Shown piece by piece: positions 3,341 through 9,036 of a stretch of 64,000 nt of DNA (the first letter of the stretch is position 1; each line of letters starts with the position of its first letter). Under the pieces are notes generated by a model. It ran no database searches. It was given only the letters and a program-made list of their open reading frames with translations, and was not told where the DNA came from. The position numbers and the translations under genes are program-made. The DNA is from Bordetella parapertussis (GTDB lineage Bacteria > Pseudomonadota > Gammaproteobacteria > Burkholderiales > JACQAP01), in the NCBI GenBank assembly GCA_945900965.1, contig CAMDKM010000007.1:17732-81731 (forward strand), written 5' to 3'.

Positions 3341-4348
3341 ATGAGCACCAATGTTTTTATCGCCGCCCTGGTCCGCATGGGATTGCTGCAAGACGGCGAA
3401 TCCCCGTGCATGACGCCGCTGGCGGGCGGCGTGTCCTCGGATATCGTGCGTGTCGATCTCCACGACAGAACGCTCTGCCTCAAACGGGCGTTGCCCAAAC
3501 TCAAAGTCAAAGCCGACTGGCACGCGCCGGTGGATCGCAATCGTTTCGAAAAAGAATGGTTGCGGGTGGCCGAGCGTATTGTTCCCGAGGCAGTTCCAAG
3601 GGTGCTGGGCGAAGATGCCGAGTCTGGGCTGTTCGCCATGGAATATCTGCCACCCGCCGAGTACCCGGTCTGGAAGGAACAACTGCGAGATGGACACATA
3701 TTGCCAGCCACCGCGGCGGCAGTCGGCCTTCGCGTGAGCGCGATTCATGAGGCCACGGCAGGCCGCCCGGAAATCGCCATCAGCTTTGCCACCGACCCTA
3801 TCTTTTTTCCGATTCGACTCGAGCCCTACCTCCTGGCCACTGCGCAGAAGAACCCGGACTGTGCAGCACGCCTGGAAAGTCTGGTCCGAATCACCAGCGC
3901 CTGTAAAAAAGCGCTGGTGCATGGCGATATCAGTCCCAAGAATATTCTGGTCGGGCCTCGTGGCCCGGTATTCCTCGACGCCGAATGCGCCTGGTACGGC
4001 GACCCGGCCTTCGATCTGGCGTTTTGCCTGAATCACCTGCTGCTTAAATGCGCCTGGCGCCCACGGTGGCAAGGCGCGTATCTGGAAAGTTTTGACGCCC
4101 TGGCCGGCAGTTATCTGGCAGCGGTGAGTTGGGAATCGAAGAACGATATCGAAGCGCGCGCCGCCCATTTGTTGCCTGGTTTGCTGCTGGGGCGAATCGA
4201 TGGACGATCGCCCGTGGAATATCTTACCGACGAGCACGACCGCGAGCGCGTGCGTCAAGTGGCACGCGTGCTCCTGCTCGATCCGGTTGCCACGCTGAAG
4301 CAAGTTCGCGATGCCTGGATCACGCTTTATCCTAGAAACGATGATTGA
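3341..4348 (+). CDS. APH/choline-kinase-fold phosphotransferase, 5-methylthioribose kinase-like
   Basis: PLAGGVSSDI loop, LVHGDISPKNILV catalytic motif, FLDAECAWYGDPAFD. Confidence 0.85.
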   Translation: MSTNVFIAALVRMGLLQDGESPCMTPLAGGVSSDIVRVDLHDRTLCLKRALPKLKVKADWHAPVDRNRFEKEWLRVAERIVPEAVPRVLGEDAESGLFAMEYLPPAEYPVWKEQLRDGHILPATAAAVGLRVSAIHEATAGRPEIAISFATDPIFFPIRLEPYLLATAQKNPDCAARLESLVRITSACKKALVHGDISPKNILVGPRGPVFLDAECAWYGDPAFDLAFCLNHLLLKCAWRPRWQGAYLESFDALAGSYLAAVSWESKNDIEARAAHLLPGLLLGRIDGRSPVEYLTDEHDRERVRQVARVLLLDPVATLKQVRDAWITLYPRNDD

Positions 4349-4500
4349 ATCACGGAGGCCACGGTGTACACGGAGAAAATCCTAGAACTTATACTGTTCT
4401 GGCCAATCACCCAGGCGGCGAACGTACAAAGCAAACTATCGCATTTGTTCTGCCCCGTGGTCTCCGTGTTCTCCGTGATTCAACTGCTTTTTTAAGGTTC
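4329..4500. repeat. miniature inverted-repeat element with CACGGAG-type 9-mer arms
   Basis: Perfect 13-bp IR TTGAATCACGGAG (4345-4357) / CTCCGTGATTCAA (4471-4483) with repeated CACGG/CCGTG units; ends directly at the enolase ATG. Confidence 0.8.
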
Positions 4501-5784
4501 ATGACAGATACCACGATCCAAAAAGTGCATGCCCGCCGGGTATGGGATTCGCGAGGCAGGCCCACTATCGAAGTCGATGTTCGGTTAACCGGCGGAGCGA
4601 TGGGACGGGCGATCGCACCGGCCGGGGCCTCGCGCGGCTCTCACGAAGCAGTCGATTTGCGCGACGGCGGCGAGGCGATGGGCGGCATGGATGTGTTGCG
4701 GGCTGTCGCCAACGTTAATGGCGAGATCGCCAATCTGCTGAGCGGACACGACTCCCTGGATCAAAGCGGCATCGACCGCGATTTGATCGCGCTCGATGGC
4801 ACGACCAACAAATCCCGGCTGGGGGGCAATGCCATGATCGCCACATCAATGGCGGTATTGCATGCCGCGGCCGCTGCGCATCACCAGCCCCTTTATGCCT
4901 GGCTTGCCCAGGGAAAATCCGTTCGCCTTCCACTCCCGGAGATCCAGATTTTTGGCGGCGGTGCGCACGCCGGACGACGCGTCGATATCCAGGATTTCAT
5001 GGTCATGGCTCTCAGTGCGCGCAGCTTCCAGGAAGCGCTGCTCATGACAGCCAATGTCTATCGTGCGGCCGGCGCCCTGATGCAGGAAGCCGGCAAACTG
5101 CAAGGGGTTGCCGACGAGGGCGGCTACTGGCCGGTATTCGCGTCCAACGAGGAGGCTTTGACGATGCTGATACGGGCCATCGAACGGGCAGGCTACCAGC
5201 CTGGTGCGGACGTCGCAATTTCCCTCGATATTGCGGCCTCCGAATTCGGCCGCAATGGCCGCTACTGGCTGGGGCTGGATAAGCGCGAGATGGACAGCGA
5301 TGGCCTGTGCGAGCTGCTGCTGGGCTGGCTTGCGCGTTTTCCGATCGTGTCGATCGAAGATCCGCTGGCGGAAGACGATACTCAGGGCATGCAACGATTC
5401 ACCGCGGCGGCGGGTCGGCGGGTGCAGATCATCGGGGATGATTACCTGGTCACCAACGCCGCGCGGGTAAGCGCCGCCGTCGAGCAGGGTGCCTGCAACG
5501 CAGTGCTGATCAAACCGAACCAGGCCGGCACGGTGACGGAAACCAAGGCCGCGTTGGATGCCGGTCAGCGCGCGGGCTGGGGCACCATTGTCTCGGCTCG
5601 CAGCGGCGAGACGGAAGATGTCACTATTGCACACCTCGCGATGGGCTGGAATGCCGGCCAACTCAAGGTAGGATCGTTCTCGCGCTCCGAGCGCATGGCA
5701 AAATGGAACGAGGTACTTCGCATCGAAGAAGCATCGGGGGCCGACGCCCGTTACGCGGGACGCAGCGTGCTTCCAGCACCATAA
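4501..5784 (+). CDS. eno: enolase-family protein (divergent paralogue)
   Basis: WDSRGRPTIEV, GASRG, DEGG, SIEDP, GDD, LIKPNQ, SARSGETED, RSERMAKWN; start at ATG 4501. Confidence 0.9.
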   Translation: MTDTTIQKVHARRVWDSRGRPTIEVDVRLTGGAMGRAIAPAGASRGSHEAVDLRDGGEAMGGMDVLRAVANVNGEIANLLSGHDSLDQSGIDRDLIALDGTTNKSRLGGNAMIATSMAVLHAAAAAHHQPLYAWLAQGKSVRLPLPEIQIFGGGAHAGRRVDIQDFMVMALSARSFQEALLMTANVYRAAGALMQEAGKLQGVADEGGYWPVFASNEEALTMLIRAIERAGYQPGADVAISLDIAASEFGRNGRYWLGLDKREMDSDGLCELLLGWLARFPIVSIEDPLAEDDTQGMQRFTAAAGRRVQIIGDDYLVTNAARVSAAVEQGACNAVLIKPNQAGTVTETKAALDAGQRAGWGTIVSARSGETEDVTIAHLAMGWNAGQLKVGSFSRSERMAKWNEVLRIEEASGADARYAGRSVLPAP

Positions 5785-5804
5785 CCACACTCGCGGCACA
5801 AATA

Positions 5805-6242
5805 ATGAGCAGCAGACCCGTACCCGAATCGCGTGAGCATTTTCGCCACTTCCAGATCATCCCGACCCGCTGGATGGACAACGATGTCTACGGGCATGTG
5901 AACAACGTAATTTATTACAGCTACTTCGACACCGTGGTGAACCAATACCTGATCGAACGCGGAGTGTTGGAAATCGACACCAGTCCGGTGATCGGTTTGG
6001 TGGTGGAAACCCAATGCCATTATTTTGCCCCGATCACCTTCCCCGATGTAGTCCATGCCGGGTTGCGGGTGACACGTTTGGGCAATAGCAGCGTGCGCTA
6101 CGAAATTGGACTGTTCACGAACCAGGAGCCGACCCCCTCGGCACAAGGGCATTTCGTTCACGTCTACGTCGATCGCGCCTCGCGCCGCTCAACCGCCCTG
6201 CCTGCTACTCTGCGCGCGGCTTTAGAAAAGCTGGTCGTCTAA
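5805..6242 (+). CDS. acyl-CoA thioesterase (4HBT/YbgC family)
   Basis: TRWMDNDVYGHVNNVIYYSYFD hot-dog fold motif. Confidence 0.9.
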   Translation: MSSRPVPESREHFRHFQIIPTRWMDNDVYGHVNNVIYYSYFDTVVNQYLIERGVLEIDTSPVIGLVVETQCHYFAPITFPDVVHAGLRVTRLGNSSVRYEIGLFTNQEPTPSAQGHFVHVYVDRASRRSTALPATLRAALEKLVV

Positions 6243-6244
6243 AG

Positions 6245-6440
6245 AAAATCTTGACGCAAAGGTCGCAAAGAACGCCAAGAAACCCAAGGAAAAGAAACAA
6301 ATTCGAGACAGGGGGCTTGGTGCCTCTTGCAAACGCGTAGCCCCGATGGACGCTTCGAGGAACATCTCTCTCGTTTTTCTTTGCGTTCTTTGCGTTCTTT
6401 GCGTTCTTTGCGAACTTTGCGCCTTTGCGTCGAGCTTTTG
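6245..6440. repeat. CGCAAAG/CTTTGCG inverted-arm element, copy 1
   Basis: Left arm of CGCAAAG units (6253-6290); right arm CTTTGCGTT x3, CTTTGCGAA, CTTTGCGC, CTTTGCGTCGAG (6379-6434). Confidence 0.85.
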
Positions 6441-6450
6441 TTTTCTGACC

Positions 6451-6527
6451 CCAGATCCTCGAATATGTGTCCGTAGCGCGCAACACCAACCGCGCCGCCT
6501 AAGGAATTACGTACCAGTTCAAGTACG
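6451..6527 (-). pseudogene. displaced second copy of the 3' end of the adjacent GNAT gene
   Basis: Translates VLELVRNSLGGAVGVARYGHIFEDL versus the gene end ALELVPGAFAGAAGVVRYGHEFEDL; gapless, 52/70 nt identical by manual alignment. Confidence 0.8.
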
Positions 6528-6533
6528 AAAAGG

Positions 6534-6710
6534 AAAATCTCGACGCAAAGGCGCAAAGACGCAAAGAAATCCAATGCAAAACAGGAAAGGAATCCATGTG
6601 TAAAACGATAGTCGCCATAGTGTTTAGGTGGCTTCTGACAAGGCGTGGCGAGACGTTATTCTTATCTCTTGTTTTTCTTCGCGTCTTTGCGCCTTTGCGT
6701 CGAGCTTTTG
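6534..6710. repeat. CGCAAAG/CTTTGCG inverted-arm element, copy 2
   Basis: CTCGACGCAAAGGCGCAAAGACGC / GCGTCTTTGCGCCTTTGCGTCGAG inverted arms; the right end GCGCCTTTGCGTCGAGCTTTTG is identical to that of copy 1. Confidence 0.85.
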
Positions 6711-6715
6711 TAGTA

Positions 6716-7234
6716 TTAAGTCAGATCTTCGAATTCGTGACCGTAGCGCACAACCCCAGCAGCGCCGGCAAAGGCGCCGGGAACCAGTTCCAGCGCCATG
6801 AATGACTCGGGTGGCGCATCGAATGTCGACTCTATGCCGAATTCGGAGGCCGGGACAAACCCGAAACGCGAGTAATAGTCCGGGTCGCCCAGCACCAGAA
6901 CGCGAGTGTGGCCCATGGCGCGACAACGCTCCAATCCGGCGCTGACCAGGGCACTGCCCACTCCAAGACGCTGAAATGCCGGCACGACGGCGATGGGTGC
7001 GAGGGCGAGTCCTTCCATCTCCAATTCCGCGTCGCCAAGGGCGACGCGCGAAAACACCACGTGACCGAGGATGCGCTGTTTGGTTTCCGCGATCAGTGCA
7101 GTGACAACTCTGTCCGCGGCGCGTAAGCGATCGACCAGCCGGGCCTCCGCATCTCGGCCGAAAGCACTACCCAGCAGTTCGGCAACTGCTTTGGAATCCT
7201 CGACTCTTTCGTCACGCAGACTGGGCATGAGCAA
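6716..7234 (-). CDS. GNAT N-acetyltransferase (YhbS-like)
   Basis: LAPIAVVPAFQRLGVGSALV acetyl-CoA motif, LGDPDYYSRFGF. Confidence 0.9.
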   Translation of the reverse strand: MLMPSLRDERVEDSKAVAELLGSAFGRDAEARLVDRLRAADRVVTALIAETKQRILGHVVFSRVALGDAELEMEGLALAPIAVVPAFQRLGVGSALVSAGLERCRAMGHTRVLVLGDPDYYSRFGFVPASEFGIESTFDAPPESFMALELVPGAFAGAAGVVRYGHEFEDLT

Positions 7235-7263
7235 AATTATAGGCTGACAAAGTATTCATGTCG

Positions 7264-8022
7264 TCAGCCACCCGGCCCGCCCCCGTTGACGAACATGATC
7301 TGGCCGCTCATGTAACTTGCCGCATCGGACACCAGAAACGCCACGGCCTCGGCAATCTCCTCGGGCGTGCCCTTGCGTCCCAGGGGCACGGATCGAATAA
7401 AGGCGTCGGCCTTTTCTTCCCCGATTTTCGCCAGCGATTCGTGGAGCATGTCGGTGGCAATCGGTCCCGGTCCCACGGCATTCACCCGGATGCCGTATCT
7501 GCCCTCTTCCTTGGACAGGATTTTTGTCATGGCTTCCAGACCGATTTTTGAAACCGTGTAAACACCGGCTCCAGCCGGAAAGCGGTTGGTCACGTTCGAT
7601 GACAAATTGACGATGTTGCCGGTGCGGCGCTGGCGCATGTGCGGCAGCACGGCCTGGATCAGATGAAATGGCCCGCTCAGATTGACCCGCAGCACATGAT
7701 CCCAGTCCTGCGCCGAGGTATCGGCCAGCATGACACCCGGAAGATGAACACCGGCATTGTTGACCAGCACGTCAATGCGTCCGAATTGCGCCAACGCTGC
7801 CTGCACCAGCGATCGCGCCGAGTCGCCATCGGCCGCATCCGCGCAGATAGCCTGGGCCTCGCCACCGGCTTTTCGCACCGCGTCTTCGACTTGCACCGCC
7901 GCCTGACGGCCGCGCAGATAAGTGAACAACACCTGGTGTCCGCGCTGCGCGAGCATCATCACAACGGCCCTGCCAATTCCGCGTGACCCGCCCGTGACGA
8001 TGGCAACCGGCTTATTTGTCAT
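7264..8022 (-). CDS. SDR family oxidoreductase (FabG-like)
   Basis: TGGSRGIG, NNAG, YTVSK. Confidence 0.9.
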   Translation of the reverse strand: MTNKPVAIVTGGSRGIGRAVVMMLAQRGHQVLFTYLRGRQAAVQVEDAVRKAGGEAQAICADAADGDSARSLVQAALAQFGRIDVLVNNAGVHLPGVMLADTSAQDWDHVLRVNLSGPFHLIQAVLPHMRQRRTGNIVNLSSNVTNRFPAGAGVYTVSKIGLEAMTKILSKEEGRYGIRVNAVGPGPIATDMLHESLAKIGEEKADAFIRSVPLGRKGTPEEIAEAVAFLVSDAASYMSGQIMFVNGGGPGG

Positions 8023-8025
8023 GCC

Positions 8026-9036
8026 TCAACTCCTGCGTGGCAGACGTCCATTCAAGGGATATTGCGGATCGTTGAATCCCGGCGTGGAGGGATGGCCAGC
8101 CGCCACCAGGGAATCGACCAGCGCCTCGCCGCGCGGGTCGAATTCGTGTTCGAGCGCCTTGAGGTAATCCTGCCACTGCTCCAGCGTGCGCGGACCGCCG
8201 ATGACACTGGTCACGATCGCGTTGTTGAGCACCCAGTTGATGGCGAAGTGTCCGGGGTCCATGCCTTTCTTCTGCGCAAACGTTTTTATCTTTTGCACAA
8301 TCGCCAGCGATTCCTTGCGAAACTCGGTCTCCATCATTCGCTTGTCCGCGCGCCCGGCGCGGGTTCCCTCCGGTGGCGCAACGCCCGGCTGATATTTGGC
8401 CGTCAGGACACCTCTGGCCAGAGGACTGTAAGGCACAACCCCAATGCCATAGTGCCGGCAGGCGGGCAGGATTTCGACTTCCGGCTGGCGGTTCATGGCG
8501 TTGTAGTACGGCTGACAGACAACAGGCAAGGCGACGTTGTGCTCGCGGCAAAGCCGAACCACTTCGGCGATGCGCCATGCGCGAAAATTGGACAACCCGA
8601 AGTAGCGGATTTTCCCCGAGCGCGTCAGATCATCCATGGTTCGCACCATCTCTTCGAGCGGGGCATCCTCGAAATCCCGGTGCAAATAATAAATATCGAT
8701 GTAATCGGTCGCCATGCGCCGCAAGCTGTCGTCGCACGCCTGCATCAGCCAACGACGGCCCAGGCCCGAGCGGTTGGGTCCTTCGCCCATGCGGTTGCCA
8801 CCCTTGGTCGCCAACACCCAGTGCTGGCGGGCTCTGGCAATGAGCTTGCCGGTAAGGCGCTCCGACTCGCCCTTGGCATACTGGTCGGCAGTATCGATGA
8901 AGTTCACGCCGGCGTCCTGGGCCGCGCCGACGATACGCGAGGATTCCGTTTCGTCCGTGCGATCACCGAACATCATGGTGCCCAGGCACAACACCGAAAC
9001 TTCCACGCCGCTGTTGCCCAACTTTCTGTATTCCAT
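8026..9036 (-). CDS. aldo/keto reductase
   Basis: MEYRKLGNSG, LGTMMFG, DTADQY, ATK, DIYYLH, YSPLARG; start at ATG 9036. Confidence 0.92.
   Translation of the reverse strand: MEYRKLGNSGVEVSVLCLGTMMFGDRTDETESSRIVGAAQDAGVNFIDTADQYAKGESERLTGKLIARARQHWVLATKGGNRMGEGPNRSGLGRRWLMQACDDSLRRMATDYIDIYYLHRDFEDAPLEEMVRTMDDLTRSGKIRYFGLSNFRAWRIAEVVRLCREHNVALPVVCQPYYNAMNRQPEVEILPACRHYGIGVVPYSPLARGVLTAKYQPGVAPPEGTRAGRADKRMMETEFRKESLAIVQKIKTFAQKKGMDPGHFAINWVLNNAIVTSVIGGPRTLEQWQDYLKALEHEFDPRGEALVDSLVAAGHPSTPGFNDPQYPLNGRLPRRS

Follow-up and report, generated by a model that had tools for sequence, protein, structure and literature searches.

An orphan copy of a GNAT gene tail between two heptamer-array repeat elements, probably made by recombination at their arms

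Introduction

How does a bacterial chromosome come to carry the end of one gene twice, with both copies lying directly beside an arm of a repeat element? The question is raised by a stretch of 64,000 nucleotides (nt) from a genome deposited as Bordetella parapertussis and placed by GTDB in the Burkholderiales (NCBI GenBank assembly GCA_945900965.1, contig CAMDKM010000007.1, positions 17,732 to 81,731 of the forward strand). We refer to this whole stretch as the window and count positions from its first letter. Within it, a gene for a GNAT acetyltransferase is followed by two foldback-like repeat elements, E1 and E2, and between these elements lies a second copy of the last ~26 codons of the gene, which we call the orphan tail (T_O) to distinguish it from the live tail (T_F) that ends the gene itself. 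An initial annotation of the window had read this arrangement as gene-terminus swapping, in which a repeat element moved together with flanking coding DNA, replaced the gene end, and displaced the old or a foreign allele. Examining the locus, its counterpart elsewhere in the genome, and the corresponding loci of related species, we conclude that T_O is probably a non-functional relic of the GNAT gene's own tail, produced within this lineage by non-allelic recombination or repair primed by the arms of the elements, and decaying neutrally.

Results

The tail of the GNAT gene is present twice in the locus. Positions 6451-6520 and 6721-6790 are identical at 52 of 70 bases without gaps, exactly as the initial annotation had counted, and this likeness is unmatched in the window: among 127,860 ungapped 70-nt frames on both strands, only the tail itself (70) and the orphan reached at least 40 identities, with the next best frame at 35. 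The repeat proved longer than stated, comprising 84 identical bases out of 109 and beginning inside the right arm of each element, of which it takes in the outer 29 nt (Table 1). Over its whole length, T_O is identical to T_F at 57 of 81 bases. Each unit consists of a CGCAAAG-array arm, a spacer, a CTTTGCG-array arm, and the tail, the two units lie 270 base pairs (bp) apart, and the register between arm and tail is identical in both; the description of two such units is thereby confirmed, with the addition that their spacers are unrelated. On the minus strand, T_F translates as ALELVPGAFAGAAGVVRYGHEFEDLT followed by the stop codon and T_O as VLELVRNSLGGAVGVARYGHIFEDLGS. The motifs LELV, RYGH, and FEDL are indeed kept in the orphan, as had been pointed out for a coding-conserved gene end, but its stop codon is lost, it has no gene body, and 9 of 22 residues are changed. 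A tblastn match that extended the orphan to GNAT residue 119 was discarded as spurious, the tail alone carrying the score and the upstream part consisting of scattered residues.

The gene to which the live tail belongs reads 172 codons from a TTG at 7234, with an ATG two codons in, and its stop codon occupies 6716-6718. Its product matches the Pfam families PF00583 (1.1e-08, 35.8 bits against a cut-off of 20.7), PF13508 (30.9 against 27), and PF13527 (30.5 against 25), and a search of the protein against NCBIfam gave no model above its cut-off. Relatives in the PDB are 4zbg_A (6.6e-21) and 4rs2_A (2.7e-19), and the match to 4rs2_A, which reaches residue 168 of 172, places the tail within the conserved fold.

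Table 1. Features of the GNAT locus in the window and of the second locus on contig C8.
Feature	Position	Strand	Description
Acyl-CoA thioesterase gene (4HBT_2, YbgC/FadM-like)	5805-6242	+	Convergent with the GNAT gene; stop codon touches the left end of E1
E1, foldback-like repeat element	6241-6445		Recognised by inverted repeats, module search, and RNA-fold hairpin; arms 34-39 nt, 82-85% complementary
E1 left arm	~6241-6293		AAAGAAAATCTTGA and CGCAAAG units
E1 interior	~6294-6373
E1 right arm	~6374-6445		Six CTTTGCG units and TCGAGCTTTTGT
Orphan tail T_O, probable relic of the last ~26 GNAT codons	6446-6526	-	Abuts the right arm of E1 and the left arm of E2
E2, foldback-like repeat element	6529-6715		Arms (inverted repeat I1) 41 nt, 90% complementary
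E2 left arm	6529-6574
E2 interior	6575-6668
E2 right arm	6669-6715		Ends directly at the GNAT stop codon
GNAT acetyltransferase gene	6716-7234	-	Recognised by open reading frame, Pfam, PDB relatives, and orthologues
Live tail T_F of the GNAT gene	6716-6796	-
Unit of outer right arm and tail, copy 1	6415-6523		Direct repeat D1: 109 nt, 77%, ungapped, spacing 270
Unit of outer right arm of E2 and live tail, copy 2	6685-6793
Second locus	C8:23870-24345		pbpC stop, T_A, E3, T_B, E4 (degenerate); directly after the stop of a pbpC-like gene

An obvious concern is that two strain variants of the gene end were collapsed at the repetitive arms during assembly. The genome is indeed a metagenome-type assembly (3.88 Mb, 103 contigs, 58.5% G+C), and short-read assemblies break at repeat arms, where contig depth peaks. 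Against this, the pieces of the locus are found in Logan contigs from studies that do not include the possible source samples. X6 record 21 covers 6410-6670 with two letters different and runs through the arm, T_O, the next arm, and the E2 interior; X3 record 14 matches 6410-6569 exactly; and the link from E2 to the gene is covered by X3 record 16 (6540-7100) and X7 record 30 (6528-7100). Word depth over T_O was 13.1 in X3 and 9.2 in X6, near that of the flanks (18.9-19.8 and 10.3-12.3, respectively), the two tails are 26-29% different, which is far beyond strain variants, and the same architecture is found again on contig C8 (see below). The passage from the E1 interior across the repetitive six-unit right arm is supported by overlaps of 22-26 nt only (X3 records 9, 10, and 14), with no single bridging contig. 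Contig joints that skip T_O or the interiors were not used, their sides being short (20-32 nt) and inside repeats. Since the links of T_O with both arms and with the E2 interior, and that of E2 with the gene, all recur in contigs of independent studies, the structure is real and no assembly chimera, and the strain-chimera artefact that the initial annotation had allowed for is extremely unlikely.

The tail occurs at a second locus as well. A tail profile search of the genome returned four copies and nothing else above noise, two in the window and two, T_A and T_B, on contig C8, where they alternate with the elements E3 and E4. Read in the GNAT frame, T_A is ALDLVPRSHTRSVDVVRDGYEN and T_B is PLDLLPGSHGRSVDVVRYEHEFEK, ungapped against ALELVPGAFAGAAGVVRYGHEF; T_A is cut short at the gene-end side, and the two are 82-85% alike. 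A third degenerate tail past E4 was considered and found unsupported (p 0.20-0.99). T_O, T_A, and T_B share the identical truncation point in the gene, each abutting a left arm there, and this common truncation point, together with the derived bases that the three have in common (see below), therefore indicates a single origin event for all three orphans. The elements between them tell a related story: across the interior (z 13-15) and the degenerate inner arm units, E3 aligns to E1 read as its reverse complement, with 82% column identity, whereas the outer arm ends of E3 are still in direct orientation relative to E1. The alignment shows that E3 is an E1 whose interior and inner units were inverted by a crossover inside the heptamer arrays, and this footprint is evidence that the arms do recombine. 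The E2 and E4 interiors match neither each other, nor E1, nor E3. Taken together, the two loci show that arm and tail were copied jointly and in register, and that the resulting unit arrived at a second locus, where it was duplicated. The idea that an element moved together with coding DNA hence stands to this extent, since the combination of element, tail, and next arm is also present on C8 and absent in the loci of 9 of 9 relatives; the gene-end swap that had been attached to it is not supported.

Outside this genome, we encountered no orphan tail. The genus set comprised 37 genomes, namely this one (G000) and 36 other species, with one genome per species; with G049 (loci L021 and L041) left out, the counts are unchanged in substance. 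In a model built from the four tails, orthologue tails of the 36 other species scored 18-31 bits versus 68-78 bits for the four copies here, and the model detected no orphan tail in these species, its six extra weak matches all lying in ordinary sequence without heptamer arrays. GNAT orthologues are present in 19 genomes of the genus at 57-68% identity, and a direct check of their loci, in which each species' own tail served as the query, found no second tail within ~1.5 kb of the gene in 24 orthologue rows, with chance matches of at most 21 nt only. In the 9 relatives whose pbpC locus was examined, neither a tail nor a GNAT gene is present there, and this genome (96.8% complete) holds no GNAT paralogue of the same family; for these two reasons, a reading of the C8 tails as remnants of a paralogue was rejected. 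A scan of metagenome contigs with the GNAT protein gave 60 loci with a best full-length identity of 49%, yielding no close relative and no intermediate alleles; short partial matches over residues 117-168 reached 60% (L220) and 78% (L223).

The differences among the four tails carry information on their polarity. All four read L-x-L-V-P, with L as the residue of codon 2 and V as that of codon 5. Of the 22 orthologue rows in register, by contrast, 20 have I or M at codon 2 and two (L029 and L025) have L, while codon 5 encodes E, Q, or D in every one of them. Two further rows, L034 and L038, show ALALVPG shifted by one codon and were left out when sites were counted. As both the live and the orphan tail share these lineage-specific residues, the foreign allele invoked by the initial annotation finds no support. 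Across 66 comparable sites, 30 are invariant, and a lone difference occurs in T_O at 9, in the pair of T_A and T_B at 7, in T_F at 7, in T_A at 5, and in T_B at 5; at 2 of the remaining sites, T_O shares its base with one of T_A or T_B, and at 1 all differ. At sites 3, 22, and 38, T_F has the majority base of the orthologues (11/17, 15/17, and 16/17, respectively) and the three orphans share another base, and the orphans therefore share derived states. Judged by these sequences, T_F has the appearance of the original and T_O that of a copy, which runs counter to the proposal that the old gene end was displaced.

The codon positions of the changes give no sign of coding constraint on the orphan lineage after the split. 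Together, the orphan branches have 10/9/7 changes at codon positions 1/2/3, without bias (T_O, 1/5/3; stem of T_A and T_B, 3/2/2; T_A, 4/1/0; T_B, 2/1/2). The class of sites that separates T_F from the orphans has 1/1/5, a third-position excess that is as expected if only the live gene stayed under selection. The ratio of nonsynonymous to synonymous substitution rates (dN/dS), which had been proposed as a check, was 0.43 for T_F and T_O (not significantly below 1), 0.56 for T_F and T_B, 0.92 for T_F and T_A, and 1.1-2.6 between orphans. Between T_F and T_O, 5 codons differ silently versus 9 that change the residue, and at least 5 silent codons arose in 14% of 2000 random placements of the 19 changes. 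Given the unbiased orphan branches and how readily chance matched the silent count, the earlier statement that the orphan diverged while coding is not supported; purifying selection on the live gene alone thus explains the synonymous look of the pair.

What was copied? A plain tandem duplication of an element together with its tail, by slippage or illegitimate exchange and with subsequent decay or replacement of one interior, would explain the 270-bp period, the same order of parts, and the left ends of the elements, which are 91% alike (6241-6262 vs 6530-6551). These left ends, however, both match the family consensus, and the interiors of E1 and E2 are unrelated (z 1.4 and -0.5; local z 1.9) although the tails are 71-77% alike. 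In simulations, duplicated interiors that had diverged by up to 42% were detected in at least 80% of trials, and the tails are 23-29% diverged. Given that the interiors are unrelated despite this detection power, the copied unit is therefore the outer right arm plus the tail and not the whole element. Moreover, the arm lengths differ (six versus three units), and the genome offers no donor for a replaced interior: apart from the likeness of E1 to E3, none of the four interiors (E1, E2, E3, and E4) is present in it a second time. A tandem duplication of this kind is hence very unlikely.

The orphans might also be what is left of a whole-gene duplicate, if the GNAT gene and its downstream element had been duplicated (in tandem, on C8, or both) and the gene bodies later deleted up to the element end. 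Intramolecular transposition is known to produce deletions that begin precisely where a mobile element ends, and paralogous genes that each have an arm after the stop exist in this genome: at C1:90503-90700 and C87:5227-5447, the 3' ends of two paralogous genes are 85-86% identical, and a CTTTGCG-array arm directly follows each stop. Another gene has an orphan 5' end beside a CGCAGAG-type element (C1:167144-167470). This orphan of the first ~32 codons of a CoA-binding / acetyl-CoA-synthetase-like gene (C1:166945-167470) lies 199 nt upstream of the real start, adjoins the CGCAGAG-type foldback element, and has 78% DNA identity and 28 of 32 residues identical when the printed translations are compared; unlike T_O, it did diverge while coding. 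For the GNAT tail, however, one truncation point in three orphans allows for one deletion only, and the truncated unit would still have had to be copied afterwards. In addition, no GNAT paralogue or fragment of its body is left anywhere, the pbpC locus of 9 relatives lacks a GNAT gene, and the orphan branches are without sign of a coding phase, so that an origin from a whole-gene duplicate is distinctly unlikely.

The history of E2 bears on which of the two tails is the newcomer. When aligned with the downstream flank of the GNAT orthologue in two other species (G010 and G018), the E2 interior gives scores of 46 and 44, the likeness being in inverted orientation relative to the gene; in a random control, none of 5,993 350-nt windows of this genome reached 44, the maximum being 41. 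This suggests that E2 could be an old resident downstream of the GNAT gene, with a relative in these two species. If the likeness is true, E2 with the live tail would be the old arrangement, and E1 with T_O the addition. A BLAST search of both interiors against the 37 genus genomes gave no matches and is uninformative, since the known E3 copy was also unlisted.

These findings allow the proposed gene-terminus swap to be weighed. It holds that T_F came in with an element that bore the 3' end of a GNAT gene (of another strain or an older allele) and that T_O is the native tail left behind. Several observations agree with it: the copying took in arm and tail jointly and kept their register, E1 beside T_O has a relative beside a C8 orphan and hence an old pairing with the tail, the unique interior of E2 fits an independent insertion, and the 1/1/5 distribution between T_F and the orphans is also expected from two alleles that diverged while both were coding. 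By contrast, the lineage-specific residues common to both tails, absent from most orthologue rows, leave no room for a distant donor, at sites where the orphans are derived the live tail agrees with the orthologues, and E2 may be the old resident. A swap furthermore needs a broken-gene intermediate or an illegitimate join, and its pattern recurs in no other gene of the genome, nor is there an orphan tail in the 36 other species (by the model) or at the 19 GNAT loci (directly). We therefore regard the swap as unlikely, and a terminus-swapping mechanism is at most partly supported.

Nor does a general mechanism acting on gene ends emerge from the rest of the genome. Only 1 of 19 element pairs has long flanking repeats, and a genome-wide scan for local direct repeats 100-700 nt apart yielded 33 candidates, 17 of them low-copy, and no other duplicated gene 3' end, although the scan is insensitive and missed the T_O/T_F pair itself. 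Two of its candidates were examined and rejected, one being a hairpin repeat (C7:90964/91128) and the other a duplicated gene 5' end (C1:166945/167144).

The elements themselves belong to an abundant repeat family. Their arms are built of CGCAAAG (or CTTTGCG) units with 1-2 bases between units and a conserved outer end (AAAGAAAATCTCGA), and the module consensus from the profile search, caAAAgAAAAtCTcGACGCAAAGgCGCAAAG, is a tandem array and not a palindrome. Genome-wide, the profile search found 74 arm modules, of which those at most 400 nt apart form 19 left-right pairs, 4 right-left pairs, and 2 pairs of the same orientation; a right arm followed by a left arm within 400 nt, as around T_O, is thus seen in 4 cases among 74 modules. 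A search with exact heptamers found 22 left-right pairs spanning 86-356 bp. The elements are dispersed, intergenic, and non-coding, and often lie right behind stop codons. A variant of the outer arm, TCGAGCTTTTGT, is found in 5 of 83 arms, including the right arms of E1, E2, and E3, and mismatches the left arms of these same elements. For each element, a long hairpin is predicted in the RNA fold, and the 561-nt region has a z of -5.6 versus shuffled sequences; a simple terminator scan, whose rules cap stem and loop size, did not call the elements, and Rfam held no fitting family, the sole match up to E = 1 being SSRC8_2 with 16.5 bits versus a gathering score of 72. Long flanking direct repeats, the only ones examined, occur in 1 of 19 element pairs, that pair being E2, which rules out a long target-site duplication as a trait of the family. 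The empty sites in relatives (5-11 nt intergenic) are too diverged to fix the ends of the elements.

No mobilising enzyme could be linked to the family. The genome has seven Y1_Tnp frames (IS200-like / RAYT-like, where RAYT denotes the tyrosine transposases associated with repetitive extragenic palindromes, REPs) of 261-311 amino acids on C14, C15, C24, C31, C49, C70, and C81 (loci L225-L228 and others), most of them bracketed by inverted repeats that start with GGGGTCAGG and end with CCTGACCCC. Heptamer arrays lie beside none of the seven, the flanks having GGGGTCAG-type inverted repeats or none, and a RAYT as the mobilising enzyme was ruled out on this ground. No transposase-sized frame inside an arm pair appeared in the module list, although no systematic search for such frames was made and Y1_Tnp alone was searched for, and no recombinase gene was seen among the frames of 4500-8500, where Pfam was run on the two flanking genes and one neighbour only.

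The family extends far beyond this genome. The 19-mer TCGACGCAAAGGCGCAAAG occurs at no fewer than 114 loci in genomes of many phyla, and among the matches listed, 53 of 122 have an exact two-unit partner array within 400 nt downstream; the hosts among these listed matches include Burkholderiales metagenome-assembled genomes, Sorangium, Terriglobia, Chlamydiae, Planctomycetales, Chloroflexi, Dehalococcoidia, Gemmatimonadales, and Chroococcidiopsis. A literature search returned no description of the heptamer family and no paper containing the arm sequence or its complement, with some of the word searches swamped by unrelated uses.

Related and unrelated repeats were noted along the way. Behind the GNAT orthologues of other species lie CGCAAAG, CGCAGAG, CACAGAG, CACGAAG, and GGAAAGG-like arrays, depending on the species (L004, L009/L036, L034, L038, L027, and L040/L041); these heptamers show single-base differences between them, with the pattern CRCRRAG, and could have arisen by concerted change in place and not by separate insertions. 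At window positions 4345-4495, just upstream of the enolase gene, lies a CACGGAG / CTCCGTG foldback-like element of the same architecture. A 479-amino-acid frame from 4345 reads through it, so that translation of the enolase gene probably begins at the ATG near 4501. A composite repeat of ~230 nt is present in three copies (C6:109966-110055, C20:22145-22242, and C20:43771-43879); in it, a conserved linker of ~24 nt joins a right arm to a left arm, and the sequence beyond the two arms is conserved as well. Their reading as arm-linker-arm units copied alone was dropped once the alignment revealed the larger composite repeat, and a likeness of the linker to the tail start, judged by eye, was too weak and was not used. 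Other abundant short repeat families of ~115 nt and ~140 nt have dozens of copies at 80-95% identity (C2:162345-162461, C1:98442-98585, and elsewhere), some of which are nested in the interiors of heptamer elements. Unspaced GTCACCC/GTCACTC heptamer arrays (L013 ~150-300; C16:7900-7940) are translated in a long frame as repeated SPVTRH.

On the far side of the elements, the convergent gene encodes a thioesterase (PF13279, 2.1e-16; PF03061; NCBIfam TIGR00051 at 41 bits, under its cut-off). Its pairing with the GNAT gene is kept in relatives, in several of which the two genes are only 5-11 bp apart, compared with 473 bp here.

Discussion

We propose that arms of non-allelic elements paired by homology and that adjacent unique DNA was copied or exchanged in the process. 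This could have happened in two ways. In version (a), the most economical, E1 and E2 would have been adjacent, and a break or stalled fork at their junction would have been repaired from the right arm of E2, with synthesis running ~80 nt out of the arm into the gene tail before the end was rejoined at the left end of E2, giving the order E1-T_O-E2-T_F. Such a repair would require one event, would never break the gene, and would account for both unrelated interiors. In version (b), which is the milder form of a gene-terminus swap, E2 would have inserted at codon ~147 of the gene, ~75 nt short of the stop, and an unequal exchange between right arms, with the E1 of an uninterrupted copy, would have restored the gene. 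We favour version (a), without deciding firmly between the two, since it dispenses with a broken intermediate and agrees with the hint of an old E2. Under either version, we infer that the orphan has no function of its own.

The C8 locus would then have been built in steps. A segment consisting of an E1-type element, the tail, and a left arm may have been copied into a resident element through arm homology; an unequal exchange between two left arms would next have duplicated the element with its tail, giving the second orphan and accounting for tails that are 82-85% alike next to interiors that differ; and the leftmost element would finally have been lost.

Several points weigh against this history. 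No intermediate allele was found, with one genome per species and the metagenome contigs as material, and every step is read back from a single end state. The arms offer only about 30-45 nt of homology for pairing, and the junction of T_O and E2 shows possible microhomology only, as judged by eye. For the C8 locus, several events are needed (a copy, an inversion, an unequal exchange, and the deletion of one element). The likeness of the E2 interior to DNA in other species came from 76 comparisons, its two matches are not independent, the alignment is gappy, and no recognisable right arm is present there. The polarity rests on 66 comparable sites, of which 3 polarise the orphan stem and 4 other sites at which only T_F differs cannot be polarised. 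Finally, the dN/dS of 0.43 between T_F and T_O lies below 1, though not significantly. Weighing these points together with the rival origins considered above, we still hold a lineage-made, arm-primed copy of the gene's own tail to be the probable explanation.

For the cell, the orphan tail matters little; its use is as a natural marker of arm pairing and recombination. The case of T_O and the C8 tails shows that unique DNA beside an arm can be copied both within a locus and to another locus. If this is general, heptamer repeats would be a source of small segmental duplications, of gene-fragment dispersal, and of 3'-end variation in bacteria. Somewhat new is the configuration: a gene piece that has a right arm on one side and the following element's left arm on the other has been copied to a second locus. 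More intriguing than the orphan tail is the presence of the repeat family in many phyla. One might speculate that foldback repeats with CGCAAAG, CGCAGAG, CACAGAG, CACGGAG, and CACGAAG units form one recombination-active class across phyla that captures and moves arm-adjacent DNA, as a bacterial counterpart of Pack-type miniature inverted-repeat transposable elements (Pack-MITEs). We consider this rather unlikely; were it true, the arms would be portable sites of homology or recombination that occasionally restore or exchange gene 3' ends.

Comparison with known systems

The nearest description that we found for the heptamer family is that of the paired GGGAATC arrays of Xanthomonas. These are intergenic tandem heptamers, often in the form of two convergent arrays able to form a stem-loop, with 70-75 paired arrays per genome and a single or paired type that is usually kept between species (Rehm et al. 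2015, PMC4692102). The elements described here are likewise intergenic tandem heptamers, often in convergent pairs, a resemblance of architecture and not of homology. The Xanthomonas heptamer is a different one, G-rich and quadruplex-forming, whereas the units here are spaced by 1-2 extra bases, and, unlike here, the available part of that account (PMC4692102) reports neither a conserved outer end (AAAGAAAATCTCGA) nor gene fragments between arrays.

With MITEs, the elements share a small size (86-356 bp), a non-coding and dispersed nature, terminal inverted repeats, and the capacity to form hairpins. MITE copies, however, are alike over their whole length, whereas the elements here have only their arms in common. 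As to the target-site duplication that flanks MITE copies, long flanking repeats (those examined) occur in 1 of 19 pairs here. Like eukaryotic foldback elements, and unlike MITEs, the elements have arms made of tandem subrepeats.

REPs, bacterial interspersed mosaic elements (BIMEs), and REPINs, with their RAYT (TnpA-REP), are similarly abundant extragenic hairpin repeats, often found as inverted pairs and as alternating arrays with linkers, and are known sites of recombination and rearrangement. A single REP is an imperfect palindrome of 20-40 nt, whereas a single arm here is no palindrome, and a RAYT gene is flanked by the same repeats that it serves, in contrast to the 0 of 7 Y1_Tnp genes with heptamer arrays in this genome. 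Shufflon-like systems and other invertible coding ends possess an intact alternative end, a recombinase, and conservation. T_O, by contrast, has no stop codon, shows no codon-position bias (1/5/3), and lies in direct and not inverted orientation, with no recombinase among the frames of 4500-8500; the orphan is not an alternative coding end.

A parallel to the dispersed gene fragment comes from plants, where Pack-MITEs and transduplication place a host-gene fragment with repeat arms on both sides at a second locus, as here. In a Pack-MITE, the fragment lies inside one element, whereas here two successive elements enclose it, the first by its right arm and the second by its left, at two loci only; a literature search found no paper on Pack-MITE-like capture of gene fragments in prokaryotes. 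The copying seen here is more probably arm-anchored and homologous than a Pack-MITE-like transposition. Short dispersed homologies are known to prime the copying of adjacent DNA, local duplications, and inversions through non-allelic gene conversion, templated insertion, and unequal crossing-over. Among the classic outcomes of such recombination at dispersed repeats is an inversion between inverted arms, as seen for the E1/E3 interior, and the mechanism that we infer here would not differ from it in kind.

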